A stretch of DNA of 64,000 bases from an uncultured Trueperaceae bacterium (GCA_963799485.1 CAWCXJ010000008.1:64001-128000); one strand, 5' to 3'; positions 3 through 62,122 are shown, numbered from the stretch's first letter. A program made the numbers and translations. The notes: a model not told the origin generated them from the letters alone.

Positions 3-794
3 GCCGACCTGCGTAAAGCCGTCGAGCAAGGTGCGTTCGAGGTTCACTACCAGCCTATCGTCACTGCCGAGGCGGGCCGAACCACCGGGTTCGAGGCGCT
101 CGTACGCTGGCAACACCCGGTTCACGGCCCCATCTCGCCGTCCGAATTCATCCCGCTAGCCGAAGAGACCGGGCTCGTCATTCAACTCGACCGCTGGGTT
201 TTACGCGAAGCGTGCGCGCAGGTCGCGGCGTGGCAAAAGCTTCCGGGCAGAGCGGCTTTAACGCTCAACGTCAACCTCTCGAGCCAGCAGTTTCTCCGCA
301 CCGACCTCGTTGCCCATATCGAAGCGGTACTCGAGCAAACGGGCCTCGGCGCTGAGAGTTTACGGCTCGAGCTGACCGAGTCTGTCATGATGAGTTCGTC
401 GGCAGCGGTGCGGGACAACATCACGCGCCTTAAAGCGCGCGGCATTCAGCTTCATATCGACGACTTCGGTACCGGTTATTCGTCGCTTTCTTATTTGCAA
501 CACCTGCCGACCGACACCCTCAAAATCGACCGCTCGTTTATCGACCGGCTCGGCGCGAGCCGTGAAGGTGAAGAGCTTGTCCGCACCATCGTTTTGATGG
601 CGCACAATCTGGGGATGAAGGTAGTTGCCGAAGGGGTAGAAACCGAGGCGCAGCTCGAGCTGCTCACCTCGCTCGGGTGCGAATACGTGCAGGGTTACCT
701 GCTTTCCAAACCCCTTAAAGCCGAGGACGCCGACCTCTTTATGACCCTTGGAAAAGAGCTTCGCGCGCGCGTGGCAAAAACTATCACCGTGTGA
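3..794 (+). CDS. EAL-domain c-di-GMP phosphodiesterase (5'-truncated by window edge)
   Basis: Frame open from base 3: ADLRKAVEQGAFEVHYQPIV...GFEALVRW...LELTES...IDDFGTGYSSLSYL...KIDRSF...VVAEGVE...QGYL. Confidence 0.93.
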   Translation, partial: ADLRKAVEQGAFEVHYQPIVTAEAGRTTGFEALVRWQHPVHGPISPSEFIPLAEETGLVIQLDRWVLREACAQVAAWQKLPGRAALTLNVNLSSQQFLRTDLVAHIEAVLEQTGLGAESLRLELTESVMMSSSAAVRDNITRLKARGIQLHIDDFGTGYSSLSYLQHLPTDTLKIDRSFIDRLGASREGEELVRTIVLMAHNLGMKVVAEGVETEAQLELLTSLGCEYVQGYLLSKPLKAEDADLFMTLGKELRARVAKTITV

Positions 795-805
795 GGCAGC
801 CGAAA

Positions 806-840
806 AAGGCTGCTGTACCCAGTTCGGATGCAGCAGCCTT
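806..840. terminator. Stem-loop between convergent genes, probable bidirectional terminator
   Basis: aaggctgctg...cagcagcctt inverted repeat between the EAL stop (794) and the 873 stop. Confidence 0.55.
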
Positions 841-872
841 ACTTGTAAGCTTTACGGCGTAGGCGGTTTCGT

Positions 873-2627
873 TCAGGTCGCTGCGCCCGGCTCCTCTTTG
901 CCCCCCGAACGTCCCTCTTCGACAAAGTTTTTAATCGACGTAAGCGCTTTAACCAGCCCCTCTTGAATCTGCGCGCGGTTCGGCCCTTCGCTGCCGCCGC
1001 TGTCATCACCCGGCGCGTCGCCTTCTCCGGCGGGCGGGCCACCTGAGAAGGTGAGGTGAACGGTCATCGTCGAGCCCTCTCCCTGTCCGGAAACCTCGAG
1101 CCACCCCGAATAGTACTGTTCGTCTGCGCCCCACTCGATCCGGTGGTTTGCTTCGTCTTTACGGAAAAACCCGTCGGCGTCGTATTCGTGGCCCTGCGCT
1201 TCGCCCTGAACCCGGACCCGTTCACCTTCTTGGGGCTGAGCGCTATGGGTCGTCGGCAGGTATTTGGGCAGGTTTTCGACCTGCGCCATAAAGGCGTAAA
1301 CCTCGTCGGGTGACGCGTTGACGGAAGTGCTGTGCTCAAACTCCTGGACCTCTGCCTGCGTGTCTCCCTCCCCGGTTTGTCCTTCAGAAGCGGTTTGTGT
1401 CTCTCGCACCGCCAACAAGTTTTGCACTCTTGTCACGCCCGAAATGCTTGCGACCGCCTCTTCGGCGGCGCGTCTGGTCTCTTCGCTGTCGACGGTGCCC
1501 TCGAGCAATACCTCACCGTTGTCGATGGTGACTTCAATCAGCGAAGCATCGACCTGTCCATGCTGGGTCAAACGCGAGTAGACCTCTTGCCCGGTTGCGT
1601 CCTCGGTCTCACGGTTTTTCGGCCCGACGCCGGTATAAGGCCCCGGCGTCAGCCAAACCTCGGTGTAAACCAGCTCTACCGGAACATCTACGATGTCTTC
1701 TACCAAAACGTCTTCTATCAAAACGTCTTCTACCAAGCCTGCTGCCGGCATGTCGGAGTCGAAATCCGGCCTCGGTTCCAGGGGTTGTCCGGCCCCGTAC
1801 GACGTGGGCTCGGGTAAACCGCTCGCCTCTACAGGCGCGCTGCTCCCGGCTTCGACTTCGGTCACATAGCCGTCGTAGCGGTCGGCGACTGCGCTTTGTG
1901 CGTCGGCCTGCATTGTGGGTTCGCCCTGCCCGCTTTGGTCTGAGCCGTCCTTATCGGACTTGCCGCGGAGTGCTTGACCGACCAAGAGTGCCGCGCCCGC
2001 GCCTGCTAAAAGCGCACCCGACGCGAGCAGGGCGTTTCTCGCGTCAATTCCGGAGGCGGCTTCTTTGCCCTTCTCGCCGAGGTCTGCAGCCTTTTGCTTG
2101 AGATTGTCTAGGGTGGCCTGTGCGTCCGGGGCGTCGACGACTTCAGCTAGATACTGCACTGTCAGCGTCGGGATATGCTTCGCCAACCAGATCGCCATCT
2201 CTTCTTCGTCACGCAAAATTTGTTGACACGCCGCCACTGTTTCCTGGTCTCCAAGCGCTTCAGCACCGGCAATTAGCGAGTTGTAGCAGGCGATCTCGAA
2301 GTTTTCGGCGGCGTAGTCGCCGAGTGCATTTTTGACCACCGTGTCTTTGGCGGGCAAGTTGGCAATCCCGGTAACCTTGCCCACGGCTGAGCTGACCGTT
2401 TCTTTAAGCGCTGCCGGTTTACCCCCCAAGCGTCCAATGCACCCTTCGACAAGCTCGGCGTGGCGCTGCGTCTCTTCGAGATGCTGCTGAAGCTTCCCGT
2501 GTAATTCCGGGTAGTTCTCGGCTGCCGAAAGGTGGGCTTTCAGGGTTGGCAACGCGCCCACCTCGAGCGCGTGGGCGTCTTTGAGCCACGAAAGTACGGT
2601 TTTTTGCTGCGCTTCTTGCGGTGTCAT
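873..2627 (-). CDS. Multidomain protein: DUF892/YciE ferritin-like domain + TM/acidic linker + BON domain + SRPBCC domain
   Basis: N-term WLKDAHALE...HLEETQRHAELVEGC...ENFEIACYNSL...EEEMA (YciE-type); hydrophobic ALLASGALLAGAGAALLVG; BON-like IEVTIDNGEVLLEGTVDS...VASISGVTRVQNLL; C-term SRPBCC-like FEHSTSVNASPDEVYAF...NLPKYLP. Confidence 0.8.
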   Translation of the reverse strand: MTPQEAQQKTVLSWLKDAHALEVGALPTLKAHLSAAENYPELHGKLQQHLEETQRHAELVEGCIGRLGGKPAALKETVSSAVGKVTGIANLPAKDTVVKNALGDYAAENFEIACYNSLIAGAEALGDQETVAACQQILRDEEEMAIWLAKHIPTLTVQYLAEVVDAPDAQATLDNLKQKAADLGEKGKEAASGIDARNALLASGALLAGAGAALLVGQALRGKSDKDGSDQSGQGEPTMQADAQSAVADRYDGYVTEVEAGSSAPVEASGLPEPTSYGAGQPLEPRPDFDSDMPAAGLVEDVLIEDVLVEDIVDVPVELVYTEVWLTPGPYTGVGPKNRETEDATGQEVYSRLTQHGQVDASLIEVTIDNGEVLLEGTVDSEETRRAAEEAVASISGVTRVQNLLAVRETQTASEGQTGEGDTQAEVQEFEHSTSVNASPDEVYAFMAQVENLPKYLPTTHSAQPQEGERVRVQGEAQGHEYDADGFFRKDEANHRIEWGADEQYYSGWLEVSGQGEGSTMTVHLTFSGGPPAGEGDAPGDDSGGSEGPNRAQIQEGLVKALTSIKNFVEEGRSGGKEEPGAAT

Positions 2628-2926
2628 AAATCCCCCTAAGGAACGAAATCCGGTTTACGGTGTGACCTTGCACAACACACTTTCAGCGACCTTATCAGCG
2701 ACGCTCGAGACGATGTTGAGCTGATTATGGCGTTCGCGTTGTCCGCTGACGTGGTGCTCCGATACGGTTTTGCTTGCGCTCGGCTGCTGACACCACCAAA
2801 AGCTGACACCACTAAAAAACGACCCTTGCAGGATTTTCCCCTCGGACTGTGCGATATACCTAAAACGCTTCTCCGGGCCGGGGACTATCTTGATTGGCGG
2901 AGCAAAAGACTTCTGGGGAGGGGAAT

Positions 2927-3817
2927 ATGTTTTATCACGACGGCAAGTTGCAATACAAAGTCGAGGTCACGACGCCTAGTCCGGTTTTCGCCAACATGCT
3001 GCAGCAGGCGATTGGCGGCATCGAAGGGGAGATGCGCGTCGCTCTGCAGTACCTGTTTCAGGCGTGGAACGCGCGCGGGCCGAAAAAGTACCGCGACATG
3101 CTCTTAGAGACCGGCACCGAGGAGCTCGCACATATCGAGATGCTGGCAACGGCGGTGGCCCTAAACCTCGAGGGGGCCGCACCGGCCCTCAAGGAACAAG
3201 CCGCCAAAGACAACCCGGCGGTCGCCGCCGTACTCGGCGGGATGAACCCGCGCCACTACCTTTCAGCGGGTTTGGGCGCGATGCCCGTTGACAGCAGCGG
3301 CGTTCCTTTTACGGGCGCGTTTGTAGTCGGGAGTGGCAACATCGCCGCCGACATGTACGCCAATGTGATGGCGGAATCGACGGGGCGGGCGCTCGCCACA
3401 CGGCTTTACAACTACACCGACGACCCCGGCATGAAAGACATGCTCTCGTTTTTGATCGCCCGCGACACCATGCACCAGCAGCAGTGGTTGGCGGTGTTGG
3501 AAGAACTCGGCGGCTATGAGGGCACACTGCCGATTCCCAACTCGTTTCCGCAGGAGCAGGAGAACAGCGATTACAACTACGTCTTTTTGTCCACCGCCAA
3601 AGACGGTCAGCCGCTTACCAATGGGCGCTGGACAGAAGGCCCGTCTTTGGACGGTAACGCCGAATACAGCCAGCGGGTCGCCGAACCCGTCGGCGGGGAG
3701 CCGAAGCTTGCGCCGCCCGTACCGGGGGCTTACGCGCAAACCGAGCAGGGGAGCCAGCTCGAAGGGGACAAGCCAATCACCAAACGTATTACCGATACCA
3801 TTACCGGTAAGGAATAA
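2927..3817 (+). CDS. Manganese catalase family protein
   Basis: MFYHDGKLQY...GGIEGEMRVALQYLFQ...TEELAHIEM...FLIARDTMHQQQW; GGGGAGGGG RBS before ATG 2927. Confidence 0.92.
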   Translation: MFYHDGKLQYKVEVTTPSPVFANMLQQAIGGIEGEMRVALQYLFQAWNARGPKKYRDMLLETGTEELAHIEMLATAVALNLEGAAPALKEQAAKDNPAVAAVLGGMNPRHYLSAGLGAMPVDSSGVPFTGAFVVGSGNIAADMYANVMAESTGRALATRLYNYTDDPGMKDMLSFLIARDTMHQQQWLAVLEELGGYEGTLPIPNSFPQEQENSDYNYVFLSTAKDGQPLTNGRWTEGPSLDGNAEYSQRVAEPVGGEPKLAPPVPGAYAQTEQGSQLEGDKPITKRITDTITGKE

Positions 3818-3899
3818 AGTTTCTATCGAGGCAAGAGGCCCCGGCATGTGTTGGGGCCTTTACTGTACCGAACACCTCAGCATCAGAACGGGGAGGTTT

Positions 3900-5400
3900 A
3901 TGGCACGGACTTCAGATACAGGCCGAGATGACGCTACGCACGAAATCGCGCCGGACTTGGCCTACAAACGCCTGGGCATCGTCAACATCGTCTTTTACGG
4001 CGTCGCCAACGGAGACTGGGTGCTCGTTGACGCGGGGCTACCCGGAACTGCCGGGGTTATCCGCAAAGCTGCCGCAAAACGTTTCGGCGAAGGCGTCAAA
4101 CCGAAAGCCATCATCTTGACCCACGGGCATTTTGACCATGTCGGGGCGCTCCGTGAACTCGCTGAAGGCTGGGACGTGCCGATTTATGCCCACGAACTCG
4201 AGCATCCCTACTTAAACGGCGCTTCTGCCTATCCGCCGCCCGACCCGTCGGTCGGTGGCGGCCTGATGGCGCGGATGTCGGGTGTGTACCCGAAAGGTCC
4301 GGTTGACGTGAGCCGCTGGCTTAGGGTGCTCCCGGAAGGCGGCAGCGTTCCGGAAATGCCGGGCTGGCGCTGGTTGCACACGCCCGGTCACAGTCCCGGA
4401 CACGTGTCTTTGTGGCGCGATACCGACCGTTTGCTGGTCGCCGGCGACGCGTTCGTGACGACCAAAGCCGAATCGGTTTATGCGGTCGCGGTGCAAAAAC
4501 CGGGAGTCCACGGCCCGCCCAGGTACTACACGCCCGATTGGGCGTCGGCTGAGGCGTCGGCGAGAGAGCTGGCCGGGCTCGAGCCCGAAACCGTCTATCA
4601 GCGGACATGGCCCGGCGCTGCAAGGTGCCGAGCTGCGCCGGGATTTGCACGTCCTGGCCGCCGACTTCAAACGCCTCGCGGTACCGTCACACGGTCGTTA
4701 CGTCGGCGCGCCCGCACGGGCCGACCTGCGCGGGACGCGTTACGTGCCGCCGAAAAAGGGGTCGTCCAACGTTGCGCTCGTCGGTACGGTTGCTGTACTC
4801 GCCGGGGGCTGGCTTCTCTACCGAGGGCTTAAAGAGCGCCGCGCCGTAAAAAACAGTGTACACCGTCAGGGCAGGGGGAGCCGGAACGAAGAAGGCGTGC
4901 AGGAGCAAGGCGCGCCCGAAGTCGAGCGCTCTCTCACGGTCGGGCGCTCCGCTGAAGAGCTTTACGGACTCTGGCTCGAGCCCGGTACCTTGCCGAAAAT
5001 CATGAGCCACGTCGCCGCAGTGCGTCACAAAGAGAACAACCAGACGCACTGGCAGCTGAACCTGCCGCTGGGCCGCAGCCTCGAGTGGGACACGCACGTT
5101 ACCGAAGAGCGCAGGGATGAGTTTATTCACTGGGCGTCGCTGGCGGGGGCCGCGCTGCCCAGCGAGGGTTTTGTACGCTTCCGCCCGGCACCGGCTGACC
5201 GGGGAACCGTAGTGACGCTCAGGCTCGAGTTCAGTCCGCCCGGCGGGGCGCTCGGGCGCGCCGCGGCGGAGCAGTTTGCGGCTGTCCCCAAAAACCTGGT
5301 CAGTAAAGCCTTGCGCCGGTTTAAGAGCCTGGCTGAAACAGGCGAGATGCCGACACTCGAGCACAACCCGTCCGCCCGTGGGCGCAGCGATAACGTTTGA
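3900..5400 (+). pseudogene. MBL-fold metallo-hydrolase fused to TM + SRPBCC/cyclase domain, split by a frameshift at ~4596 (or a sequencing error)
   Basis: GGAGG RBS and ATG 3900; THGHFDHVG, HTPGHSPGH and LVAGDA motifs; LEPETV continues as ISGHGPALQG in another frame, then an SRPBCC domain (VERSLTVGRSAEELYGLW...LRRFKSLAETGEMPT). Confidence 0.75.
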
Positions 5401-9040: not shown

Positions 9041-9042
9041 GT

Positions 9043-16711: not shown

Positions 16712-16772
16712 CAGGAGGCGTCAGTTTTGTGGGCGAAGTCAACAAGTTTTGAAATGCTTCTTGCTTCTTCTG

Positions 16773-17798: not shown

Positions 17799-17832
17799 AA
17801 AAGAAGCGGCCCCGTAAAAGGCCGCTTTTTTT
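17799..17832. terminator. Bidirectional Rho-independent terminator
   Basis: aaaag-aagcggcc-ccgtaaaa-ggccgctt-ttttt between convergent genes. Confidence 0.8.
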
Positions 17833-17843
17833 GTACTCAGCGT

Positions 17844-19322
17844 TTACGGCGCGGTGTAGCGTAAAACCGGTTTACGGGCGGCTTTGACCTCATCCAAGCG
17901 GCGTACCGGCGTGGTGTACGGCGCATCTTTTAAGAAATCCGGGTCGGCTTCGGCACGCCTCAGCACCTCTGCCATCACTTCGACAAAGGCGTCCATCGTC
18001 TCGAGGCTCTCCGTCTCGGTGGGTTCAACCATCATCGCTTCTTTAACGACCAGCGGAAAATACATCGTCATCGGGTGCATCCCGTAGTCTAAAAGCGCCT
18101 TGGCGACGTCGAGCGTTTTCATCCCTTTAGGCGGTTGGGCGACGAACTCGTGCATGTTGATGCGGTCGAACGCCGTCTTGAAGCCAACTTCGTTCAGCTT
18201 GACCCGCAAATAGTTTGCGTTTAAGACGGCCCGCTCGGAAATCTGCGCCAGCCCGTCGCGGCCCAAAGCCCGAATGTAGGTGTACGCCCGGACGAGGTTG
18301 CCGAAGTTGCCGTGAAACGAACGCATCCGCCCGATGGAGTGCGGCTGGTCGTAGTCGAACAAAAAGCGTTCGCCCTCCTTTTTAACAATCGGTGAAGGGA
18401 GAAAATCGCGCAGGTGCGCCTTGACCCCGATAGGGCCGGTGCCGGGGCCGCCGCCGCCGTGAGGCGTGGTAAAGGTCTTGTGCAGATTGAGATGCACCAC
18501 ATCGAAACCCATATCGCCGGGACGAGCGCGGCCCACGATGGCGTTGGCGTTCGCGCCGTCGTAGTAGAGCTGCGCGCCGACCTCGTGGGCGAGGTGGGCA
18601 ATCTCCAAGATGTTCGTCTCAAACAGGCCCAGCGTGTTGGGGTTCGTGAGCATAATCGCCGCAACATCCGGGCCGAGCACAGCCTTGAGCGCGTCTAGGT
18701 CAACTTCGCCGTTCGGAGCCGTCGGCACTTCTTTGACGTCATACCCGACCATCGTCGCGGTGGCCGGATTGGTGCCGTGCGCGGCGTCCGGAACGATGAC
18801 GATACGGCGCTGCTGACCTTCGCCGTTGTGTTCGTGATAGGCCCGAATCATCAAAATCCCGGCGAGTTCGCCGTGCGCGCCTGCTGCCGGTTGCAAGGTG
18901 ATGGCGTCCATCCCGGTAATTTCAGCGAGGTCGTGTTGCAGGTTGTAGAGCAGCTCCAGAGCGCCCTGTACCGCGTCCGGGTCGGCGTTCGGGTGAACGT
19001 CGGCGAAGAGCTTGGCGGTTTCTTCGTTGACTTTGGGGTTGTACTTCATAGTGCACGAGCCGAGCGGGTAGAAGTTGCCGTCTATCGAGAACTGCCGGTG
19101 CGCGAGCTGGGTGTAGTGGCGTACTAGCTCCAACTCCGACACTTCCGGCAGTTTGGGCGGCGCGGCCCGTAAATTTTCAGTACCTAAAAGGTCAGCAAGG
19201 CTCTCCCCGACCGGTTTGGGCGGGCAGGCGGCGCGGCGGCCCGGTTGCGAGCGCTCGAAGATGAGCGGAAAGTCGCCTTTGGTGCTCTGCATAGGCGTTG
19301 ATTGTTCTCCAAGTTTAGTCAT
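17844..19322 (-). CDS. gcvPB: Glycine dehydrogenase (decarboxylating) subunit 2
   Basis: [40 protein letters not shown]. Confidence 0.96.
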
Positions 19323-21221: not shown

Positions 21222-21245
21222 TTTTACGGCGTTCGCGCCGTAAAA
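21222..21245. repeat. Perfect hairpin made of two inverted copies of the iterated CCGTAAA motif
   Basis: TTTTACGGCG-TTCG-CGCCGTAAAA, immediately after the gcvT stop. Confidence 0.85.
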
Positions 21246-40353: not shown

Positions 40354-40372
40354 CGCTGCCACCCTAACAGGA

Positions 40373-40849: not shown

Positions 40850-41958
40850 GGAATTAACAGAATCTTGAGCGAGCTGTCGCCTTTAGCCATCAGGTCAAAG
40901 CCTTTTTGAAACTCCTCTAACGGCAACTGATGCGTGACGACCCCTTCGGTCGGTAGCCGCCCGTCGGCAATCGCCTCAATTGTCAGTGGATAACAGTACG
41001 GCCCCAGGTGCGAACCCAATAGGTCGAGTTCTTTACGGTCGGAGATAATGCTCCAGTCCACCTTGACATCTTTGGAAAAGACGCTGAACTCGACGAAACG
41101 GCCGAGTTTGCGGATCATCTGCAAGCCTTGCTCGACCCCGACGGGGCTGCCGGTCGCTTCGATGTAGACGTCACAACCGTAGCCGCCAGTCAGGTCTTTC
41201 ACGATCTTTACGGCGTCTTCCTCGAGCGGGTTGATGACCATATCCGCGCCAAACTTTTTAGCGAGCTCCAAGCGCTCGGGTTTGGTGTCTAAGACGATGA
41301 GTTTCGTCGGATTTTTCAGCCGCGCAGCCCCGACCATTCCGAGCCCGAGCGTCCCGGCTCCGGCTAACACCACCACGTCGCGGAGCTGAATGTTACCCCG
41401 GTTGACGGCATGAACCGAACACGCGTAAGGCTCGACCAAGATGGCTTTTTCAATTGGCAGGTCACTCGGTACGTGGTAGTTCAGAGCCTCTTTGGGAAAA
41501 CGCATGTACTCGGCCATGCCGCCATTGACATTGTTTTGAAACCCGTACACGTCGTGCTTCTCACACATCCAGTATTCGCCTTCGTCGCAAAACCGGCAGT
41601 TCCAGCACGGCACGATCTGCTCGCTGATCAGCCGGTCGCCGACCTCAAACTCGCCTTTGGCGAGGACGTTTTCACCGACTTCTACGGCGACGCCGATAAA
41701 CTCGTGACCGGGGATCATCGGCGCTTTGATGTACGCCGGTTGGCCTTTGCCGCCCCAGAACGACACCGCGCCGTCACACGCTTTAATGTCACCCGCGCAG
41801 ATGCCGCACGCCTCAATTTTGACGATGATGTCGTCGGGTCCGGCGCGGGGCGTTTCGACCTCTTCTAAACGGTAGTCGCCGGGGGCGTAGGCGACCACGG
41901 CTTTCATGGTTTTGGGCAGCGTTTCGGTTTGTTTTTCGGGGGCTAAGGTGTCAGCCAT
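40846..41958 (-). CDS. eltD: Zn-dependent erythritol/L-threitol dehydrogenase-like protein
   Basis: DYRLEEV, ACGICAGDIK...FWG...IPGHEF, EQIVPCWNCRFC...YWMC.KHDVYGFQ, DWSIISDRKELD..GSHLGPYCY. Confidence 0.75.
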   Translation of the reverse strand: MADTLAPEKQTETLPKTMKAVVAYAPGDYRLEEVETPRAGPDDIIVKIEACGICAGDIKACDGAVSFWGGKGQPAYIKAPMIPGHEFIGVAVEVGENVLAKGEFEVGDRLISEQIVPCWNCRFCDEGEYWMCEKHDVYGFQNNVNGGMAEYMRFPKEALNYHVPSDLPIEKAILVEPYACSVHAVNRGNIQLRDVVVLAGAGTLGLGMVGAARLKNPTKLIVLDTKPERLELAKKFGADMVINPLEEDAVKIVKDLTGGYGCDVYIEATGSPVGVEQGLQMIRKLGRFVEFSVFSKDVKVDWSIISDRKELDLLGSHLGPYCYPLTIEAIADGRLPTEGVVTHQLPLEEFQKGFDLMAKGDSSLKILLIP

Positions 41959-47867: not shown

Positions 47868-48830
47868 GTGGAACCGTCAGAAAAACTCGATACGTTGGTG
47901 CAGACCGCCTACCTCTACTATCACGAGGGGCTGACGCAGGCTGAAATCGCGCAGGAACTAGGGCTCTCGCGGCCCACCGTCGCCAATTTGCTGCAGCGGG
48001 CGCGTACCGAAGGGCTCGTCACCATCTCCCTGCGGCCCGACTACCTGAGCAGTTTGACGCTCGCCCGCGACCTCAAAGCGCACTTCGGGCTGACCGACGC
48101 GCTGATCGTACCGACGCTGCCGGGCGCAGACGCGACCGCCGTAAACCGGGCGCTCGGCGCGATGGGGGCGCTGTACTTGGAGAAAGTCTTGACCCCCGGC
48201 GACGTGATCGCTACCGCCTGGGGCGCGACGATGCTCGAGGTCGCCCAGGCGCTCAGCGGTCGGACGGTTGAAAACGTCACGATTGCCCAGTCGCTCGGCG
48301 GCCTGTCAACCGCCGACACCTTTAATCCGGGCCGGGTGGCGACCCTGATGGGTGACAAACTCGGGGCCAGAACCTATCACCTTTACGTTCCGGCAGTGGT
48401 TGAGTCTAAAGAGGTCAGAGACATCTTGCTCCGCGACCGCGCCATCTACGCCGCGTTCGAGGTGGCGCGGTCGGCGCAGCGCGCGATTATGGGGATCGGC
48501 AAGGTGTCACACGGCGCGACGGTCATTAAAGCCGGCTTTATCAGCACCGAGCAGATGGACGAGCTGCACGCCAAAGGTGCCGTCGGCGATATGTCGGGGC
48601 GTTTTTTCGATGTTCACGGGGTTCCTGTCATGACCGACCTCGACGCCCGGATTATTGCGCTTTCGCTGGGCGACCTCAAAACCATCTCGCCGGTGATCGC
48701 CGTGGCGGGCGGTGAGGACAAGATCGAAGCGATTTTAGGGGCGCTCCGGGGCGGCTACTTAGACGTTTTGATCGTCGATGAGCAAACCGCGAAAAAGGTC
48801 TTAAAACGCAGTCAGGATGCGGGTAACTAG
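47868..48830 (+). CDS. SorC/DeoR-like sugar-binding transcriptional regulator
   Basis: AYLYYHEGLTQAEIAQELGLSRPTV HTH; GAVGD, AGGEDKIEAILGALRGG...DE. Confidence 0.93.
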   Translation: MEPSEKLDTLVQTAYLYYHEGLTQAEIAQELGLSRPTVANLLQRARTEGLVTISLRPDYLSSLTLARDLKAHFGLTDALIVPTLPGADATAVNRALGAMGALYLEKVLTPGDVIATAWGATMLEVAQALSGRTVENVTIAQSLGGLSTADTFNPGRVATLMGDKLGARTYHLYVPAVVESKEVRDILLRDRAIYAAFEVARSAQRAIMGIGKVSHGATVIKAGFISTEQMDELHAKGAVGDMSGRFFDVHGVPVMTDLDARIIALSLGDLKTISPVIAVAGGEDKIEAILGALRGGYLDVLIVDEQTAKKVLKRSQDAGN

Positions 48831-48952
48831 AACGCTCTCAAAAACCCTGTGGGGCTGAGGCAGCTGCGCGGGAGCCTGAACAAACCAGCCGTGTAAGGCA
48901 GGCAGGTTTGTACCTGTTTACTTTCGCGTTGTAGAATAGTCGGGGGGGTACA

Positions 48953-51900
48953 GTGAGAGGGTCTGAAGAGAGTCCCTGGCGCAGCCTTTTTGAAACGGTA
49001 CGGGGCGCGCTCCATAATCGGCGGGACGAGCAGGGTGTCGTCGGCTCGATCAACTGGTTGCGCCAGGGGATGAAAGAGCGCGGGGCCAACCCGAACGTCG
49101 TGCGTAACATCATCTACCGTGACAAGGGCAAGCTTGCGGACAAACGGGTGCTTTTTAGCCTTTTAAGCGAGCTGTGGGAGAGTACCGGCAGAGCCCCCCT
49201 CGAGGCTCCTGAAATCGAACTCCTCCTCAGCAGTTCGCCCGATGAAGGGGAGGCGCAACTTTTGGGCCGCGACAAACGCCGCGTCTACAGCGGCTTTGTC
49301 GGCGCGGTGCGCGCGGGCAAGCAGCCCAAGCTGCTCGTGACCGGACGCCCCGGCTCCGGGAAAACACTCTTGAACGACGCTGTCCAGCGGGCGCTCGAGC
49401 GCCCCGCCCGGGGTTCGTTACAAGATACGTTACAGGGCGCGTCACAGGTTGCGCCGGCGGTCGTCCGGCAAGAGTTTTCGGCGCTCAACCTGGGCGACGC
49501 CCTTTTGCACCTCTCGCTGGCCCTCGGGGTGACGGCGGAAGCGTTCGAGGCCAAACTCGTCAAGGTCGGCGTCGCGGGCGCGTACGCGGTTCAGGCCGAC
49601 GCCCAAGCCGACGTCGCGCGGGTCGTGTGGGAGCGTCTACGTGGTCGGCGCGACCCGCTGGTACTGCTCTTGCACGTTTCGCAAACTGCCGGGGGCGCGC
49701 CGGGAACGTTGGGTGACGTGCCCCTGCGCCTCAGTACGCCGGACGTACCGCGTGTCGGCCTTACCGAATGGCTCTGGCACACGCTGCTGGAACCACTCTC
49801 GCGCCTGAACCACGTGAGTTTGCTCGTCAGCATGACCGAGGTGCCGCTGACGCTCGCCGGCCGCACCGGAGCTTTTGAAGGCCCCGTCAAACTCAGTCCG
49901 CCGACCACCGCCGAAGCGCAGCGCTTTGTGCGGGCGCGTGCGCCGCACCTTTCGGACGCGCAGCAAGAAGCGCTGGTAGGGCGGGCTAAACGCTCGTTCG
50001 AAGACCTCCGCACCCTGACGCTCTTGGCCGAGGCGCGCGAACCCCTGGACGAGAGCCGTCACGCCGAGCAGCTCGGTCAGCTCGTCTCCCGCGGTTCGGG
50101 CCGCCTGAGAGATTTTCTCGAGGTGTTGGCGGTTTTGTCCCTGCCGGAATTTCCGGCGGTCACCCAAGCGGCGCTGGAAACCCTGCGGAGCGCCGAACCG
50201 AGAAGCTTGAGCAGCCTCGAGCTGGCCTTTCTAGACGCCATGCCGGGCGAACCGGGCCTCTGGCGGCCCTTTTCGCGGCAGTTTTCGCGCACCCTGAGAA
50301 ACCGTTTACGCGCCGCCGACCTGGCGCGTTTTCGCAGCTTGAGCCGCGCCGCGAGCCGCCTCTATGAAGAAGACGCGCGCCGCGCTCCCCGGAGCGAGGC
50401 AGCCGCACGCTACGTCCATCACCTTTTTGCGGCTCGAGACTGGCGTGAGCTGCTCGCCTGGGCCGAACACGCCCCCGTGCCGCAATCGCTCTTGCAGCGG
50501 CTCTGGCGTGCGGCGCAGCGCGAACTCGGCGACCCTGCCACACTCGGCGCGGTGGCCCTGCGCGTCGCGTCGTACTATGTGCGGCTCGGCAGCCCCGAGC
50601 ATCCCGACGCGCTTGTGTCGCTCGAGGTGCTCGCCGCCTCGGGCGACCCCAAACTGCGCGCCTGGACGCGGGTCAGACGCGCCGAGAGCGCCCTGCTAGA
50701 AGGTCGTTACGGCGAGGCCGAAGCGCTGCTGGGAGGCTGGCAAGACGTCGGCGACCCAGGGCTTGCGCTCGAGGTTACGCTGCTGCGGGCCAACCTCGCG
50801 CGCTGGCGTTCGCACCTCGCAGACGCCGCCGAGCTGGCCCGGAGAAGCGCGGAAGCGCTCTCCCGGATGGACGCCTCAGATAACGCCGCAGACCCGGTTC
50901 TCGCGGTGCGGGTCGGGCTCTGGCTGGGCATCGTCGCCAAAGACGAGGGTGCGCTGGAAGGTGCGCTCGAACACTTTCGCCGCGTTTTTGACCACGTTGC
51001 AACCGGCGACGAACTGCTCCGCGCCCGTATCCGCTTTCAGGAGGCCGACGTCCTCTTTAGTCTCGGACACCTCCGCGACGCGCACGCGGCGCTGACCGAC
51101 GCGGTAAATCTGAGTTATCAAGGTGAAGCCCCGGCGTTCGAACGGGCGCGCTACCTCGCGCGGCGCGGTACGTTGCAGCGGCGTCTGGGTGACCTCGGCG
51201 CGGCGCACGCCGATTTTGCCGCCGCCTACGCCGCTCTCGCGAGCACCCAAACAGCGCCCGTGCGACTCGGTTTCGAATACGCGAAAGTCCAGGATGAAGA
51301 GGCGCTCAACCTGCTCGCCTGCGGGCGTGCCGACGAGGCGATCATCAGCCTTCAAGAAAACCTCGAAACCTTCGCCGCTTACGGTGAACATTACGGCGTC
51401 GATCCGAGTTTTCGCACGCTGCGCGGCACCTTGCGGCTGGCGCTCGCCTACGGTTGCCGCGCGCTGGGTCAGTGCTACCGGCTCCCGCTCGGGCTTTATC
51501 CCGAACCTGTAGCCGCCGACCTGCAACGGGCGCGGGGGCTCGTCGGCGTGGTGCAGGGGGCGCTGGCGGGTGAACCGGGGCGTTATGCGGGGCTCGTCAC
51601 CCAGGCGCAGCTGGCCGCGAGCCTCCTGCTGGCCCCCGAGGACGCTGTTAAACAAGCAGAGGCGGCCCTAAGCTCGGCCCGGTATCCTTACGGGCGGGGG
51701 CAAGCAGGTGCCCACCTCGCAGGCGCGCTTTTGCGCCGCCACGACCCCGCAGGCGCACGCGCGCTCAGCTACGCGGCGCAACACGACCTGCAAGCCGCCG
51801 CCACCGATGACGACGCTCTCTACGCCTACCTCGCCGTGTTGGACGCCGCCGCACATCTCTGTCTGGGCGACCCCGGAAGCGCACACGAGCGTATTTTCGG

Positions 51901-52120
51901 AGCCCTGCAAAAGCCGCAACTGGCGCGCTACCACGCGGCGCTGCTCCGCCGTTTCGGGGAGCTTGCCGAACACCTGGGGGTTCCGCCTAGCGCCGCTGCC
52001 CTTGGTTTCGGCGACGCGTCCCTGCCGAATACCCTCCGCCCCGCCGACGCACTTGTTTTGCGGCTCCGGCAGCAGCGCCGGGGTGCGCCCGCCGAACTCG
52101 CAGAAAAAGCCCGGCGGTGA
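48953..52120 (+). CDS. Large uncharacterised protein: N-terminal helical domain + P-loop NTPase + TPR-like repeats (STAND-like)
   Basis: 1055-aa ORF; LLVTGRPGSGKT Walker A; long Ala/Leu-rich TPR-like C-terminal half. Confidence 0.75.
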   Translation: MRGSEESPWRSLFETVRGALHNRRDEQGVVGSINWLRQGMKERGANPNVVRNIIYRDKGKLADKRVLFSLLSELWESTGRAPLEAPEIELLLSSSPDEGEAQLLGRDKRRVYSGFVGAVRAGKQPKLLVTGRPGSGKTLLNDAVQRALERPARGSLQDTLQGASQVAPAVVRQEFSALNLGDALLHLSLALGVTAEAFEAKLVKVGVAGAYAVQADAQADVARVVWERLRGRRDPLVLLLHVSQTAGGAPGTLGDVPLRLSTPDVPRVGLTEWLWHTLLEPLSRLNHVSLLVSMTEVPLTLAGRTGAFEGPVKLSPPTTAEAQRFVRARAPHLSDAQQEALVGRAKRSFEDLRTLTLLAEAREPLDESRHAEQLGQLVSRGSGRLRDFLEVLAVLSLPEFPAVTQAALETLRSAEPRSLSSLELAFLDAMPGEPGLWRPFSRQFSRTLRNRLRAADLARFRSLSRAASRLYEEDARRAPRSEAAARYVHHLFAARDWRELLAWAEHAPVPQSLLQRLWRAAQRELGDPATLGAVALRVASYYVRLGSPEHPDALVSLEVLAASGDPKLRAWTRVRRAESALLEGRYGEAEALLGGWQDVGDPGLALEVTLLRANLARWRSHLADAAELARRSAEALSRMDASDNAADPVLAVRVGLWLGIVAKDEGALEGALEHFRRVFDHVATGDELLRARIRFQEADVLFSLGHLRDAHAALTDAVNLSYQGEAPAFERARYLARRGTLQRRLGDLGAAHADFAAAYAALASTQTAPVRLGFEYAKVQDEEALNLLACGRADEAIISLQENLETFAAYGEHYGVDPSFRTLRGTLRLALAYGCRALGQCYRLPLGLYPEPVAADLQRARGLVGVVQGALAGEPGRYAGLVTQAQLAASLLLAPEDAVKQAEAALSSARYPYGRGQAGAHLAGALLRRHDPAGARALSYAAQHDLQAAATDDDALYAYLAVLDAAAHLCLGDPGSAHERIFGALQKPQLARYHAALLRRFGELAEHLGVPPSAAALGFGDASLPNTLRPADALVLRLRQQRRGAPAELAEKARR

Positions 52121-53283
52121 GCCGAATAGACCCCACTTGCGCGTTTGTTTACGCACCCGAACTGGGCGACTATGAGCTCTCTGCCGAACATCCTTTCAAA
52201 CCCGCTCGGCTCGAGCTGACCCGGACGCTGCTGGAAGCGTGTGGTCTGCTCGGTACGGAAAGTATCGTCGCGCCCGAACCGTTTACCGAAGCGCAGCTCT
52301 TGACGCTCCACGACCCCGCGTTCGTCGCGGCGGTCAAGGCGGCCTCGAGCGGTGAACGGGTTGAAAACGCGCTTCACTACGGTCTCGGTACCCCCGACAA
52401 CCCGGTTTCTCCAGGGCTACACGACGCGATTTTGCGAATTTGCGGCGCGTCGCTGACGGCGGTGCGGCTCGTCGCGTCGGGGCGTTTTACGCGCGCCGTC
52501 AACTTTTCCGGCGGGCTGCACCACGCAGGTCAGGCCAAGATGTCGGGGTTTTGCACCTATAACGACGTGGCGTTAGCCGTTCACGAAGCCGTGACCCGTT
52601 ATGGCCTCCGCGTCGCCTATATCGACTTAGACGCCCACCACGGCGACGGGGTACAAGAGCTTTTCTACACGTCAGCCGAGGTGCTGACCATCAGTGTCCA
52701 CGAGTCGGGGCGCTATTTGTTTCCCGGTACCGGCTTTACCTACGAAGTCGGGCAGGGGGCGGGGCGGGGGCTTAGTGTCAATGTGCCGCTCGAGCCCTTT
52801 ACCGAATCGGCGTCGTATCTAGAAGCGCTGGAAGCTGTTTTGCCGAAAGCACTAGAGGCGTTTCAGCCCGGCCTGATCGTCCTCCAAGCCGGGGCCGACA
52901 TGCACCGCTACGACCCCTTGACCGACCTTCATCTGAGCGTTCAAGGTATCGCCGAGAGTTACGCGCTGGTGAGCGATTTAGCCGACACCTTTTGCGGCGG
53001 GCGGCTCGTGGCGACCGGCGGCGGCGGTTACGACCCCTACCGAACGGTGCCGCGCGTCTGGGCGCGCTTGTGGTGTGCACTGAGCAGTCAGAATGCGCCC
53101 GCGAGTATTCCGGCAAGGTGGCGTGAAGCGTGGGAAGACGCCCTTGGCGTGACGCTGCCCGAAACCTTTGCCGACGACACCGACGCCTGGCCCGAAAGCC
53201 CGAGGCGCGCCCAAATCGAGGCGGCGAACCGCCACACCGTGCGTAAACTCCTGGCGTCGTTGGGCCCCATCTGGTCAGGTTAA
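52117..53283 (+). CDS. acuC: Histone-deacetylase family protein (AcuC-like)
   Basis: HPFKPARL, GGLHHA, SGFCTYND, DLDAHHGDG, SVHESGRYLFPGTG, GGGGY; GTGA overlap with the upstream ORF. Confidence 0.92.
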   Translation: MSRIDPTCAFVYAPELGDYELSAEHPFKPARLELTRTLLEACGLLGTESIVAPEPFTEAQLLTLHDPAFVAAVKAASSGERVENALHYGLGTPDNPVSPGLHDAILRICGASLTAVRLVASGRFTRAVNFSGGLHHAGQAKMSGFCTYNDVALAVHEAVTRYGLRVAYIDLDAHHGDGVQELFYTSAEVLTISVHESGRYLFPGTGFTYEVGQGAGRGLSVNVPLEPFTESASYLEALEAVLPKALEAFQPGLIVLQAGADMHRYDPLTDLHLSVQGIAESYALVSDLADTFCGGRLVATGGGGYDPYRTVPRVWARLWCALSSQNAPASIPARWREAWEDALGVTLPETFADDTDAWPESPRRAQIEAANRHTVRKLLASLGPIWSG

Positions 53284-53290
53284 ACGGGTA

Positions 53291-54085
53291 TCAGGTCACC
53301 ACGTTGAGCCAGCCGCCATCGACGTAATACGTTGAACCGACCGAGTAACTCGCCCGCTCCGAACACAAAAAGACGAAAAAGTTCGCCAGCTCCTCGGCCG
53401 TGCCGAAACGTCCGATAGGCGCATTTGTCTGGGCAATCCCTTCTAAATATTCCTGCCACGTCACGTCTTTGCCTTCGGTCAAAAGTTTCGCCGTCTTTTC
53501 CCAGTCGGGCGTTTGAATGAGGCCGGGATTTACGGTGTTGACGCGAATCCCGTCTCCGATGAGTTCATTAGCGAGGCATTTGGAGAACATCGCCAGCGCC
53601 GCCTTCGAGACGTTATAGATGGGTTCGTAACCGAGCGGTTGCGACGCGCAGATCGACGCGTTATTCAGAATCACCCCGCCGCCGCGTTCACGCATCGCCG
53701 GGACGAACGCCTTTGAAAGCCGCACCGCCGCCATCAGGTGCAGGTCGAGGTAATACTGCCATTTCGCGTCGTCGGCCTCCATGATAGTCTCTTCGCTGCC
53801 GGTGCCGGCGTTATTGATTAAAATATCTGCGCCGCCGAAGGTTTCTAAAACCCTTTGTGCAAACTGTGTTACGTCGTCCGCGCGGCTCACGTCCGCCACG
53901 ACGCCGAGCGTTTCGACGCCGTAAGTTTCCCCCAGCCGCGCCGCTTCACGCGTGACCCGCGCCTCGTCCCTGGCACAAAGCGCCAGCTTGACGCCCTCTT
54001 GCGCCAACCCTTCGGCGACTGCCAAGCCGATACCGACGCTGCCCCCCGTAATCACCGCCACCTTACCGCCAAGTCCTAAATCCAT
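53291..54085 (-). CDS. SDR family oxidoreductase
   Basis: TGGSVGIG, NNAG, YNVSK, VDGG. Confidence 0.9.
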   Translation of the reverse strand: MDLGLGGKVAVITGGSVGIGLAVAEGLAQEGVKLALCARDEARVTREAARLGETYGVETLGVVADVSRADDVTQFAQRVLETFGGADILINNAGTGSEETIMEADDAKWQYYLDLHLMAAVRLSKAFVPAMRERGGGVILNNASICASQPLGYEPIYNVSKAALAMFSKCLANELIGDGIRVNTVNPGLIQTPDWEKTAKLLTEGKDVTWQEYLEGIAQTNAPIGRFGTAEELANFFVFLCSERASYSVGSTYYVDGGWLNVVT

Positions 54086-60100: not shown

Positions 60101-60921
60101 GCGAGCAGTTACTCCAGAATTTGGTCGAACTATTTTCCGAGTTACCGCAGGTTGACGCGGTGACGCTCGGCGGCTCGAGGTCGGGCGCACACGCCGACGC
60201 CTTAGCTGATTTCGATGTTTACGTCTGCACGGGCGACACTATTGCGTTAGAAACGCGCCGGAACATCGTAAAAGAGTTGGGCGGCGCGTCCAGGGCTGAT
60301 TTGGGTCACGACTATTTCGGTGGCGGGGACGAATGGCTCGACGCCGCGACGGGCAGACATTTCGACGTGATGTATTTCGGGCTCGAGTTTTTCCTTGAAC
60401 AGCTCGAGCGCCCGCTCGTGCGCTACCAGCCGAGCTTGGGTTATAGCACTGCGTTTGCCTACACGGTGAGCCGAGCAGAAATCCTGTACGACCCCGCAGG
60501 CCGATTTGCCGCGCTTCAGGCTATAACTAGAGCGCCGTATCCCGACGCTTTGCGTGAGAACGTCGTGCGTTACAACCACCCGATCTTACGGAGTACCATT
60601 TCGTCGTACTCCGCGCAGCTCAAGAAAGCCGTACAGCGGGACGACCTTGTAAGCATCAATCACCATTTGGCAGCGCTGATGGCGAGCTATTTCGACATTC
60701 TTTTTGCCGTAAACCGGGCGCTGCATCCGGGAGAAAAAAGGCTCGTGCAGCTTGCCGGTGAGCTGCCGAGCTTACCCGAAAACTTCGCGCAGGACGTGAC
60801 CGAAACGCTTTCTGCGTCGGGGACTGGACTTCTAGGCGCTTTAACTCGCCAGTTGGACGCGCTCGAGGTGTGGCTGGTGCGTGAAGGATTCGCTACATTA
60901 CGACCTGCCCAGCATGCTTAA
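60097..60921 (+). CDS. Pol-beta-like nucleotidyltransferase-domain protein (DUF4037-like)
   Basis: LGGSRSG..ADALADFDVYV (GS..DxD), HPGEKR; GTGA overlap with the sbcC stop. Confidence 0.75.
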   Translation: MSEQLLQNLVELFSELPQVDAVTLGGSRSGAHADALADFDVYVCTGDTIALETRRNIVKELGGASRADLGHDYFGGGDEWLDAATGRHFDVMYFGLEFFLEQLERPLVRYQPSLGYSTAFAYTVSRAEILYDPAGRFAALQAITRAPYPDALRENVVRYNHPILRSTISSYSAQLKKAVQRDDLVSINHHLAALMASYFDILFAVNRALHPGEKRLVQLAGELPSLPENFAQDVTETLSASGTGLLGALTRQLDALEVWLVREGFATLRPAQHA

Positions 60922-61535
60922 CGCCCCAGCAGCTCCTCTGCTTCGCTCAGGGTCAACTCTTTGTTGTAGACGCTCGAGCCCGGTTCCTGCACCGCACTCT
61001 CAGAGAGCGTCCCGGTATCGACCGCCGCAAAACCTAATTCTTCGATAAGTTTGCCGACAACTTGTTTGGCGTCCGCGTCGTCGCCTGCAATAAAGATGGC
61101 GCGGCGCTCACGCAGCGGCAGACTCGTATCGCCCTGTTCGTGCAGGTGCTTCCAGAAGATGGTGTTAAACGCCTTGACCACTCTTGCAGCTTTTAGGTGT
61201 TCGGCGACGAGTCCGGTCTGAGTCAAGCCGTGAAAGTCTAGTTTGCCGTCGCGTTCGGGGTAGTAGTTCGACGCGCTGATTAAAATCTTGCCGGCAAGTG
61301 CGTCCACTGGCAGCTCTTGGTATTTGCCGTAAGGGATAGCCTCGAGTACCACCTCGCCAAATGCGGCGGCGTCAGATGCCGTCATCGCCGTAACGTTGGG
61401 GCCGAGTTCCTCGGTAGTTTCTCGCAGCGTTTCGGGTTTTCTCGAGTTGCTTAGCGCGACCTTGTGACCCGCACGGGCGAAGAGGTCTGCTGCGGTTTTG
61501 CCGATGTTGCCTGCACCGATGATGCCGATATTCAT
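60918..61535 (-). CDS. NADPH-dependent F420 reductase / dinucleotide-binding oxidoreductase family
   Basis: IGIIGAGNIG, SNYYPERDG, VVKAFNTI, AGDD. Confidence 0.88.
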   Translation of the reverse strand: MNIGIIGAGNIGKTAADLFARAGHKVALSNSRKPETLRETTEELGPNVTAMTASDAAAFGEVVLEAIPYGKYQELPVDALAGKILISASNYYPERDGKLDFHGLTQTGLVAEHLKAARVVKAFNTIFWKHLHEQGDTSLPLRERRAIFIAGDDADAKQVVGKLIEELGFAAVDTGTLSESAVQEPGSSVYNKELTLSEAEELLGR

Positions 61536-61618
61536 ATACGCTCCTCTAGCCCCTATACTAAGCGCCCAAAAAGACCGCGTGACCGTAAGGCCGGGCTAAG
61601 TTGGGGTAAGCTAAGCGT

Positions 61619-62122
61619 ATGTTGGATAAAACCCCGCTGGCGCGCTTTGGCCTTGACCCGGAGACCGTAAGGGAAGCGTTGGCGCGTGAGTTTACGGCGT
61701 TCGAGGCGCTTCCGGCAGAACTTACGGCGGTGTGGCTCGAGCCCTACGCGCCGGGCAAGTGGTCGCCCGCGCAGATAACCGAACACGTCATGAAGGTCAA
61801 CACCGGCGTGAGCAAGACGCTCTATCTGCTCCGCCGCGACGCGCCGCTGCCCGAACAGCAGCGCGTGCCGGGGCGTCTCGAAGACGGCAAGGCGCAAGCC
61901 CCGGCGTTTTCCGAGCCGGGCGAAGGGCTCCCCTGGGAGGTGTTGCAACCGAAGTGGCTCGAGCTGAAAACTCGCTTTTTAACCGAAGTCGAACAAGCCC
62001 GAACATCCAAGCGCACCTGGTTCCATCCTTATTTCGGCGACTTGGGGGCACTCGACTGGGCGCGGGCGGCGGCGTTTCACATGGCGCACCACCGTAAACA
62101 GCTGAGCGCGGCGCAACGGTGA
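61619..62122 (+). CDS. DinB family protein
   Basis: WSPAQITEHV, HPYFG, HMAHHRKQ. Confidence 0.8.
   Translation: MLDKTPLARFGLDPETVREALAREFTAFEALPAELTAVWLEPYAPGKWSPAQITEHVMKVNTGVSKTLYLLRRDAPLPEQQRVPGRLEDGKAQAPAFSEPGEGLPWEVLQPKWLELKTRFLTEVEQARTSKRTWFHPYFGDLGALDWARAAAFHMAHHRKQLSAAQR

Follow-up and report, generated by a model that had tools for sequence, protein, structure and literature searches.

A short, non-palindromic word, CCGTAAA (reverse complement TTTACGG), is scattered through a 64,000-nt stretch of DNA from an uncultured Trueperaceae bacterium (G000:C8:64001-128000, referred to here as the window) and through the rest of the genome to which the stretch belongs (G000; 3.655 Mb, 15 contigs, 59% GC). 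The word has a sharp 7-bp core, is used symmetrically on the two strands, is specific to the chromosome and conserved DNA and to one clade, and is still accumulating. As a tentative reading, to which we give somewhat less than an even chance, CCGTAAA may be a self tag resembling the DNA uptake sequences (DUS; PMC3630211, PMC2397512, and PMC3868556, partial texts), spread by a drive linked to transformation.

An exact search of the window returned 90 copies between positions 359 and 62098 (41 on the plus strand and 49 on the minus strand; 1.4 per kb), 21 of which start in the first 10 kb. The first-pass annotation of this DNA, made from the sequence by eye, had counted ~85-90 and ~21 copies, respectively, and the positions that it gave (359, 851, 1158, 2654, 3308, 3994, and 9481) are all in the exact-match list, which ends with a copy at 62092-62098. 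One hundred dinucleotide-preserving shuffles of the window contained a mean of 10.08 copies (SD 3.04, maximum 17), and none reached 90. Gene calling relied on a simple codon model trained on G000 itself (2902 genes, 81% of the genome), a crude procedure whose stops are exact for true genes. By these calls, 46 of the window copies are antisense, 30 are sense, and 14 are intergenic, in agreement with the earlier statement that the word occurs in both orientations and in intergenic DNA as well. The reading frames named in the annotation are also real, the commonest peptide contexts being AVK, FTA, xYG, and xLR. Seventeen of the 90 copies have the extended form CGCCGTAAAA. The annotation had guessed at a Deinococcota lineage, and this fits the best matches to GcvPB, which come from Trueperaceae metagenome-assembled genomes at 74-76% amino acid identity.

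Across G000, CCGTAAA is present in 3274 copies (0.9 per kb). The ratio of observed to expected counts was 9.9, 5.9, 4.5, 3.4, 1.8, and 1.2 under Markov models of orders 0 to 5, and the z-score of the word ranked third among the 7-mers of G000 at order 1 and second at order 3, with only CTCGAG-containing words above it. At order 1, all 21 one-mismatch neighbors were found at 0.5- to 2.2-fold of expectation, compared with 5.9-fold for the word itself, and the near-match excess was graded (5.92-, 1.39-, 1.08-, and 1.01-fold at 0, 1, 2, and 3 mismatches). CCGTAA was followed by A in 58% of cases, and CGTAAA was preceded by C in 54%. A bias toward a shorter oligonucleotide, which the annotation had named as a possible cause, therefore does not explain the excess, since the one-mismatch neighbors are near expectation and the sub-words extend mostly to CCGTAAA.

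A logo built from the 3274 sites showed a preference for C (0.50) and G (0.54) before the core, with any base except T directly before it, and for A (0.47) or C (0.28) after it; no information was found outside positions -2 to +7. The 9-mer GCCGTAAAA occurs 832 times (15.3-fold), and any substitution in the core lowers this ratio to 0.5- to 2.9-fold, while the 10-mer CGCCGTAAAA is enriched ~22-fold over its reversed control. The unit is a sharp 7-bp core with weak flanks. A longer repeat, a repetitive extragenic palindromic element, or a miniature inverted-repeat transposable element (MITE) was rejected on the basis of the bare logo beyond these positions and the location of about three quarters of the copies inside called genes.

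The word is as dense in non-coding DNA (0.96 per kb) as in coding DNA (0.88 per kb), and within genes all five stop-free frames are filled (513 and 367 copies in the sense frames; 541, 640, and 480 in the antisense frames). The third sense frame, CCG-TAA-A, contains a stop. When synonymous codons were shuffled within genes (n = 30), 158 ± 12 sense and 516 ± 15 antisense copies were obtained, compared with 880 and 1661 observed, an excess of 3.2- to 5.6-fold by orientation. The 10-mer behaved in the same way, with 7.5 sense and 30.6 antisense copies under the shuffle against 161 and 259 observed. The excess thus survives an amino-acid- and codon-preserving shuffle, a test that the first-pass annotation had proposed, and the force on the word acts at the level of DNA rather than protein. 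A peptide or codon artifact was rejected on the basis of these shuffles and the equal non-coding density.

These results also bear on the simplest alternative, namely that there is no signal and the word owes its frequency to base composition, codon usage, peptide content, or shorter-word bias. The order-5 ratio of only 1.18, which leaves CCGTAAA outside the top 12 words, would be in line with this, as would the general excess of A-runs in G000 (AAAA is 3.8-fold over order 0). However, a low order-5 ratio is expected because the sub-words of CCGTAAA themselves carry the signal. Dinucleotide, synonymous, and codon-order shuffles all leave a 3- to 6-fold excess, the word is no scarcer outside genes than within them, and the 21 neighbors are near expectation. 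In addition, the sub-words are enriched through the 7-mer and not the reverse, and neither the reversed word nor other species of the same genus show the excess. A pure composition artifact was rejected on the basis of the shuffles, the non-coding density, the neighbors, and the reversed-word control, and we regard the absence of any signal as extremely improbable.

The stop-containing frame is itself in use. CCG-TAA-A contains 32 of the 957 TAA stops genome-wide, including the gcvPB stop at 17843-17849 of the window. The orientation of the motif anticorrelates with gene orientation (r = -0.44), and local runs of same-strand copies track the direction of the genes, since one of the sense frames, CCG-TAA-A, is closed by its stop. 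As a separate observation on stop codons, TAA is preceded most often by the codon CCG (53 of 957, compared with 87 of the 2902 last codons overall). Stop usage in G000 is almost even by the crude gene calls (TGA 994, TAA 957, and TAG 946); TAG is the rarest stop codon in most bacteria.

The distribution of the word among relatives is narrow. Counting CGCCGTAAAA on both strands against its reversed control gave 540 and 24 matches in G000, 435 and 17 in G005, and 196 and 34 in G001, while the remaining three species of the genus had 21 and 5, 25 and 17, and 16 and 15. Strong enrichment was seen in 3 of 128 Trueperaceae genomes, all of one genus (G000, G001, and G005); five others (G051, G052, G008, G050, and G123) had ~2- to 8-fold the control, on small counts. 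The count included G110, which is flagged as unpublished and on which none of our conclusions depends. For CCGTAAA itself, the ratio was 4.9-fold in G005 and 3.3-fold in G001. The over-representation that the annotation had proposed looking for in related Trueperaceae is therefore present in G005 and G001, but strong excess is confined to 3 of 128 genomes, and three species of the same genus are without it. Within the genus, it is the low-GC species that carry the word (56-59%, compared with 62.5-67.5% for the sampled non-carriers). Composition is not the cause of this difference, because the reversed-word control shows no excess. In public sequencing runs, the window was represented in only three sediment-metagenome runs from one study, with small shares (0.05-0.15 of words), and the contigs matching it were fragments too short to be of use in testing for polymorphism.

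Within the carriers, the word is concentrated on the chromosome. The ten larger contigs of G000 have 0.66-1.10 copies per kb and three small contigs have 0.52-0.64, compared with 0.25 per kb on C2 (88 kb) and 0.27 per kb on C3 (53 kb), both at 56.8% GC. In contrast, CTCGAG is even across all G000 contigs (1.5-2.1 per kb). C2 encodes a serine recombinase, an S24 repressor-like protein, a recombination directionality factor, a RepB primase, and ISL3 transposases; none of the C3 proteins tested had a Pfam match. Overall, the motif is 2- to 13-fold rarer on plasmid-like contigs. In G005, 1 of the first 100 listed matches to an 11-mer form of the word, ACGCCGTAAAA, fell on contigs C1-C7 (~0.4 Mb) and 99 on the chromosome, and small-contig samples gave CCGTAAA ratios of 2.8-fold in G005 and 1.6-fold in G001, compared with 4.9- and 3.3-fold on their chromosomes.

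Motif-free gaps of at least 6 kb are also more frequent in G000 than expected (52 compared with ~12). Among the largest are one island that carries genes for an integrase, a YhcG nuclease, and a Mutator transposase and a second, integrase-bearing one immediately upstream of the window. Another stretch, G000:C4:217360-241697, runs for 24 kb at 66% GC with no CCGTAAA and a normal density of CTCGAG; it encodes a cyclopropane-fatty-acid synthase, a glucodextranase, glucose-6-phosphate and 6-phosphogluconate dehydrogenases (G6PD and 6PGD), cytochrome b, and copper oxidase-like proteins, and was probably acquired from a high-GC relative. Other gaps span conserved genes, and one of 6.5 kb includes a stretch 93% identical to G002, which we take to be the 16S rRNA gene. 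In syntenic blocks, G000 DNA that aligned to G005 or G001 had 1.09 and 1.25 sites per kb, compared with 0.62 and 0.82 per kb in unaligned DNA, although these numbers are small.

We found no replication-linked polarity. In 50-kb windows of G000 with positive GC skew, 969 copies were forward and 938 reverse, and in those with negative skew the counts were 563 and 527; the 10-mer was present 263 times forward and 277 times in reverse across the genome. Since the GC skew of G000 is too weak to map the origin and terminus, we added the 4.02-Mb chromosome contig of the closest relative, G005, which ACGCCGTAAAA matched 139 times, compared with once for its reversed control. The 99 listed sites, which cover the first 2.75 Mb of this contig, switch orientation throughout. 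Their centered orientation walk had a range of 8.4, compared with 11.6 ± 2.7 in shuffles; with one switch, a 75:25 skew would give a range of ~26 and a 65:35 skew ~18. Of the two outcomes that the annotation had set out for this test, the word is thus unbiased and DUS-like rather than like Chi or the FtsK-orienting polar sequences (KOPS), in the G000 windows and over 2.75 Mb of the G005 chromosome. Polarity of the type seen for Chi, KOPS, or architecture-imparting sequences was rejected on the same grounds.

The word might instead act as a Chi-like signal that attenuates or switches an end-resecting helicase-nuclease (AddAB-like or other), with chromosomal DNA being repaired and DNA lacking the word being degraded. 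Chi and CCGTAAA are alike in being asymmetric words of 5-8 bp with a several-fold excess on the core chromosome and low frequency on mobile DNA, and a several-fold excess is nearer to that of Chi in Escherichia coli than to that of DUS or of uptake signal sequences (USS). All five genomes searched contain a reading frame of 905-973 aa that includes a PDDEXK_1 nuclease domain (AddA/AddB/RecB type), and if breaks are random and two-ended, as after desiccation or radiation, little replichore skew might be expected. On the other hand, the nuclease-domain gene is equally present in the motif-less genomes G002 and G003, and the match is to the domain only. Orientation bias with replication is described as the signature of Chi and KOPS (PMC3384302, partial text), and CCGTAAA lacks it, even a 65:35 skew corresponding to more than twice the observed walk. 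We consider a Chi-like role improbable.

Alignment of the three carriers shows that sites turn over quickly. Species of the genus differ at ~20-27% of aligned nucleotides. At G000 sites in ungapped alignment, the same word was present in G005 at 57 of 118 and in G001 at 42 of 129, compared with a baseline of identical 7-mer windows of 0.30 and 0.28, respectively. In a three-way alignment of 55.8 kb, the word was shared by all three genomes at 8 sites, by G000 and G005 at 20, by G000 and G001 at 10, and by G005 and G001 at 2, and was found in G000 alone at 24 sites, in G005 alone at 24, and in G001 alone at 11. Composition-matched control words had 5-38 sites each, mostly in a single lineage. 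Many of the single-lineage CCGTAAA sites face one identical non-motif word in both other genomes and are, by parsimony, gains. Slightly higher identity suggests that G000 and G005 are sisters; if so, G000 would have 24 gains against at most 2 losses. The word is still accumulating, with gains made independently in each lineage. The commonest aligned alternatives are CCGCAAA, CGGTAAA, and CCGTCAA, with no single mutational path. At coding sites where the relative has another word, the peptide was the same at 25 and changed at 25 in G005, and the same at 38 and changed at 42 in G001.

Turnover of this kind bears on a role in chromosome organization, in which some abundant protein, a nucleoid-associated, condensation, or segregation factor, would bind the word. 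The word is chromosome-specific, strand-symmetric, and independent of gene and frame, as such a site could be, and a structural role has been proposed for the cyanobacterial highly iterated palindrome HIP1 from its periodic distribution (PMC5861425, partial text). Fast site turnover, weak conservation at silent positions, and clumped rather than regular spacing (coefficient of variation 1.2-1.5) argue against it. No candidate protein is known, and the role would have to arise within a single genus. We view this explanation as very improbable.

A second word of this kind was found in another genus of the family. In all three genomes of genus g27 (G047-G049), ACCTCTT/AAGAGGT is present in 5851-6319 copies, forward and reverse in about equal numbers, compared with 645-713 copies of its reversed control and at most ~1240 copies of ACCTCTT elsewhere in the family. 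A 100-kb sample (G048:C1:1000001-1100000) contained 137 copies, 14.3-fold over expectation, with AAGAGGTC as the best 8-mer. Like CCGTAAA, ACCTCTT is an asymmetric heptamer used equally on both strands; unlike CCGTAAA, it covers its whole genus, and the two words are unrelated. Neither clade is enriched for the word of the other. Samples of G008, G038, G122, G051, G077, and G002 (100 kb each), G123 (38 kb), and G003 (130 kb) had no comparable asymmetric word, although weaker words would be missed at this sample size. Because eight other lineages were sampled without finding one, and because the words of the two clades differ, hyper-abundant words appear to be sporadic in the family and to have arisen at least twice, independently of one another.

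How could a word with these properties spread? In the mechanism that we propose, some part of the DNA-uptake or early transformation machinery would bind double-stranded DNA carrying CCGTAAA slightly better than other DNA. Conspecific fragments that carry the word, or mutations that improve a near match, would then enter the cell and be incorporated into the chromosome by recombination at a higher rate. CCGTAAA would thereby ratchet up wherever homologous recombination regularly replaces DNA, regardless of strand, frame, or gene, and would stay rare in DNA that arrives otherwise (plasmids, integrative elements, and foreign islands, for example). Of the genome-wide words known so far, uptake sequences appear to be the only ones that combine asymmetry, absence of skew, a density of about one per kb, and indifference to reading frame with rarity in DNA that has no homologue in relatives. 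To our knowledge, sequence-specific DNA uptake has been demonstrated experimentally in only two proteobacterial families. Thermus is naturally transformable, and we know of no uptake specificity in either Deinococcus or Thermus. Natural transformation is described for Deinococcus (PMC11784314, partial text).

The comparison with DUS and USS is close in several respects. In each case, a short asymmetric word occurs about once per kb, shows no polarity between the strands, and occupies intergenic DNA as well as every usable frame; it is scarce where relatives have no homologue, has graded near matches, is shared by related species, and is accompanied by competence genes. Genes without homologues in relatives are described as lacking uptake sequences (PMC2817400, partial text), and a graded near-match excess has been described for uptake-enhancing sequences (PMC1939737, partial text). 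The present case differs in its core of 7 bp rather than 9-12 bp, in being limited to three congeneric species instead of extending through a family, in its phylum, the Deinococcota, and in its inverted pairs, which are not enriched. The DUS-like interpretation raised in the annotation is thus consistent with the density, strands, frames, lack of polarity, depletion in mobile DNA, near matches, relatives, and competence genes, but the fold-excess and the inverted pairs do not fit it. That uptake or transformation is the process reading CCGTAAA is accordingly put forward as possible rather than probable. A literature search, whose coverage excluded subscription journals and supplements, gave no account of CCGTAAA or of any uptake-like word in Deinococcota among the papers listed; the listed matches to the bare words were oligonucleotides, constructs, and other unrelated sequences.

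Several observations weigh against an uptake sequence. The enrichment is modest (6-fold for the 7-mer and 15-fold for the 9-mer), the maximal-order Markov ratio is low, as described above, and the enrichment of DUS and USS is far above the 6- to 22-fold seen here. Frequent inverted pairs acting as terminators are typical of DUS and USS, although not defining. Adjacent copies of CCGTAAA no more than 40 bp apart are mildly clumped (170 compared with ~115 expected), but inverted pairs at this distance (59 of 1482) are rarer than direct ones (111 of 1777); the inverted pairs after genes to which the annotation had drawn attention are therefore not a general feature, and the case in the window is anecdotal. 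The density rises only slightly in the 90 bp after stops (1.1-1.4 per kb, compared with ~0.9 inside genes; 1.2- to 1.5-fold), and the spacing is clumped, not even. Third-codon-position identity within sites is moderately raised against G005 (170 of 229, or 0.74; flanks 0.65) and hardly raised against G001 (173 of 272, or 0.64; flanks 0.61), with control words at 0.69 and 0.63, so that individual sites appear to be only weakly protected.

The plasmid-like contigs may also be poor in the word simply through recent arrival, and the all-or-none specificity for 7 bp looks as much like that of a restriction-modification-type reader as that of a pilin. CCGTAAA and ACCTCTT are unrelated words in two clades of one family; the known DUS dialects, like the USS types, are just a few letters apart. 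Finally, the competence genes do not distinguish carriers from non-carriers. ComEC is encoded once in each of the five genomes, the motif-less G002 and G003 included; pilin N-methyl matches numbered 4, 4, 5, 4, and 1; and a minor-pilin operon has the same layout (a ~720-750-aa protein, three pilin-sized genes, and a 595-aa gene) in G000, G005, and the motif-less G002. Because these genes are equally present in G002 and G003, they explain nothing about the carrier species, and the extra genes of the minor-pilin operon were rejected as the reader on the basis of the shared layout. The dedicated receptor in Neisseriaceae is ComP, which has a DUS-binding domain; the ComP_DUS domain (PF16732) was matched in none of the five genomes, but 14 control genomes were also silent.

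We also weighed a DNA modification or repair system as the reader. In this explanation, the word is the site of an orphan or restriction-linked methyltransferase, a nicking enzyme, or a glycosylase, and its abundance results from repair or conversion biased toward the site or from selection for a methyl mark. Explanations of this type have long been discussed for HIP1. The explanation overlaps with an uptake tag, since a methylated word could be what the uptake machinery reads. Seven contiguous base pairs recognized in all-or-none fashion, with weak flanks, are as expected for restriction-modification-type readers, and two unrelated words in two clades of the family would fit a swappable recognition module. 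Carriers also have more DNA methyltransferase genes than the motif-less G002 and G003 (N6_Mtase, 6, 11, and 10 matches compared with 2 and 3; N6_N4_Mtase, 1, 4, and 2 compared with 0 and 0; C5 methylase, 3, 3, and 1 compared with 0 and 0). A further parallel is HIP1 itself, which is recognized by two methylases and reported to enhance transformation in a way that depends on methylation (PMC13756078, partial text).

A shared enzyme was not found among the methyltransferases compared, which comprised, of the N6_Mtase matches, only the MmeI-family enzyme, and beside it the Type III-like Mod proteins and C5 methylases of a survey limited to some families; none of those compared was orthologous across G000, G001, and G005. 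The MmeI-family enzyme was rejected as a shared reader because five genomes of the same genus have no close orthologue (partial matches of at most 37% identity). Its gene in G000 (G000:C5:165411-168350) is an intact Type IIL restriction-modification gene of 979 aa with all four MmeI Pfam domains. Type III-like Mod/Res pairs were rejected because the Mod proteins are 24-26% identical across carriers, and the C5 methylases because they are 26-29% identical across carriers and those of G000 lie on the motif-poor contigs C2 and C3. The C5 methylase paralogues on C2 and C3 are themselves 64% identical, nearly identical in the N-terminal catalytic part and divergent in the C-terminal part, a pattern suggesting that two mobile elements carry the same scaffold with exchanged target-recognition regions.

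Three further points count against modification or repair. Vsr (PF03852) had no match in G000, while three control genomes were matched, and an excess driven by very-short-patch repair was rejected because of this and because the T-variants CTGTAAA, TCGTAAA, and CCATAAA are at 1.1-, 1.7-, and 1.8-fold. Near-cognate words are not depleted, contrary to conversion into CCGTAAA. A cell-wide repair bias should also reach resident plasmids, yet the plasmid-like contigs are motif-poor. Given the modest fold-excess, the clumped spacing, the unrelated words, and the all-or-none specificity, we retain a reader of this kind as an unlikely explanation.

A genuine HIP-like palindrome is found in G000 as well. 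No word of this genome is more over-represented than CTCGAG, whose best form is GCTCGAGC (7252 sites, 2 per kb, 5.9-fold at order 1); it has 141 copies in the window and is enriched in all five same-genus relatives sampled. Among 101 genomes of the order that were counted, GCTCGAGC is low in family f2 but is present at 838-4448 sites in every one of the 19 genomes from family f5. The reversed palindrome CGAGCTCG is rare in f5, with 0-165 sites per genome and no more than 7 in 15 of them. CCGTAAA resembles HIP1 as a hyper-abundant short word of genic and intergenic DNA; the function of HIP1 was unknown for decades, and a role in uptake has lately been proposed (PMC5861425 and PMC13756078, partial texts). 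Unlike HIP1, CCGTAAA is non-palindromic and occurs in a much narrower clade, has no cognate orphan methyltransferase among those compared, and has sites that are less conserved than reported for HIP1 (PMC5861425, partial text). A term search of Elhai 2015 (PMC4390886, partial text) returned no CTCGAG, Deinococcus, Thermus, or Vsr.

The main features of the motif field in the window are as follows (coordinates are those of the window).

359..62098, no single strand: field of 90 copies, 17 as CGCCGTAAAA (exact search and shuffles).

359..4000, minus strand: run of six same-strand copies at 359, 851, 1158, 2654, 3308, and 3994 (exact search).

17799..17832, plus strand: terminator-like hairpin 3' of an IscA/ErpA-like gene, with a GCGGCC/GGCCGC stem and the loop CCGTAAAA (motif at 17812-17818), followed by a T-run.

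17843..17849, minus strand: copy whose TAA is the gcvPB stop (CCG-TAA-A).

17871..17877, minus strand: second copy in the 60-bp spacer of the convergent IscA-like and gcvPB genes.

21222..21245, no single strand: perfect 10-bp stem of inverted extended copies (TTTTACGGCG and CGCCGTAAAA) that closes a 4-nt loop and immediately follows the gcvT stop.

39532..41213, minus strand: cluster of eight copies in 1.7 kb, at 39532, 39818, 39833, 40240, 40271, 40445, 41032, and 41207.

48146..53528, no single strand: longest motif-free stretch of the window, 5.4 kb.

Both hairpins were described in the first-pass annotation and are present as described, and gcvT, gcvPA, gcvPB, and the IscA/ErpA-like gene lie where it placed them. 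No T-run follows the 21222-21245 hairpin on the gcvT strand. Elsewhere in the window, ~220 bp at 16757-16985 have over 20 matches (72-73% identity) on both strands of the G005 chromosome and are probably a small dispersed repeat or MITE common to G000 and G005. Two observations were made on other words in the relatives. In G002:C1:1-100000, TATCCACA occurs 16 times (47-fold) in what looks like a DnaA-box cluster, and the record of this closed genome probably starts near oriC. In the small contigs of G001, 7-mers such as CCTCATA and ATTGAAA each occur 60-68 times in 99.5 kb and look like a tandem or CRISPR-type repeat array.

If CCGTAAA and ACCTCTT are both uptake tags, sequence-specific uptake would have arisen de novo at least twice in Trueperaceae with unrelated tags, one (CCGTAAA) in a young sub-clade of a genus and the other (ACCTCTT) in a second genus, a proposal that we find rather doubtful at present. 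Tags read by the uptake machinery are textbook biology, but both families known to have them carry old, saturated tags, which obscures the origin of such specificity. CCGTAAA is tag-like and young, being strong in 3 of 128 genomes, differing within a genus, and still being gained, and this makes the question of origin testable. If the uptake reading is true, this lineage would catch uptake specificity at its birth, with three carriers and three non-carriers in the same genus. If the word is read instead by a repair, modification, or resection system, it would still add a new example of a force on DNA that is able to alter codon choice and, at about half of the differing coding sites, the peptide as well.

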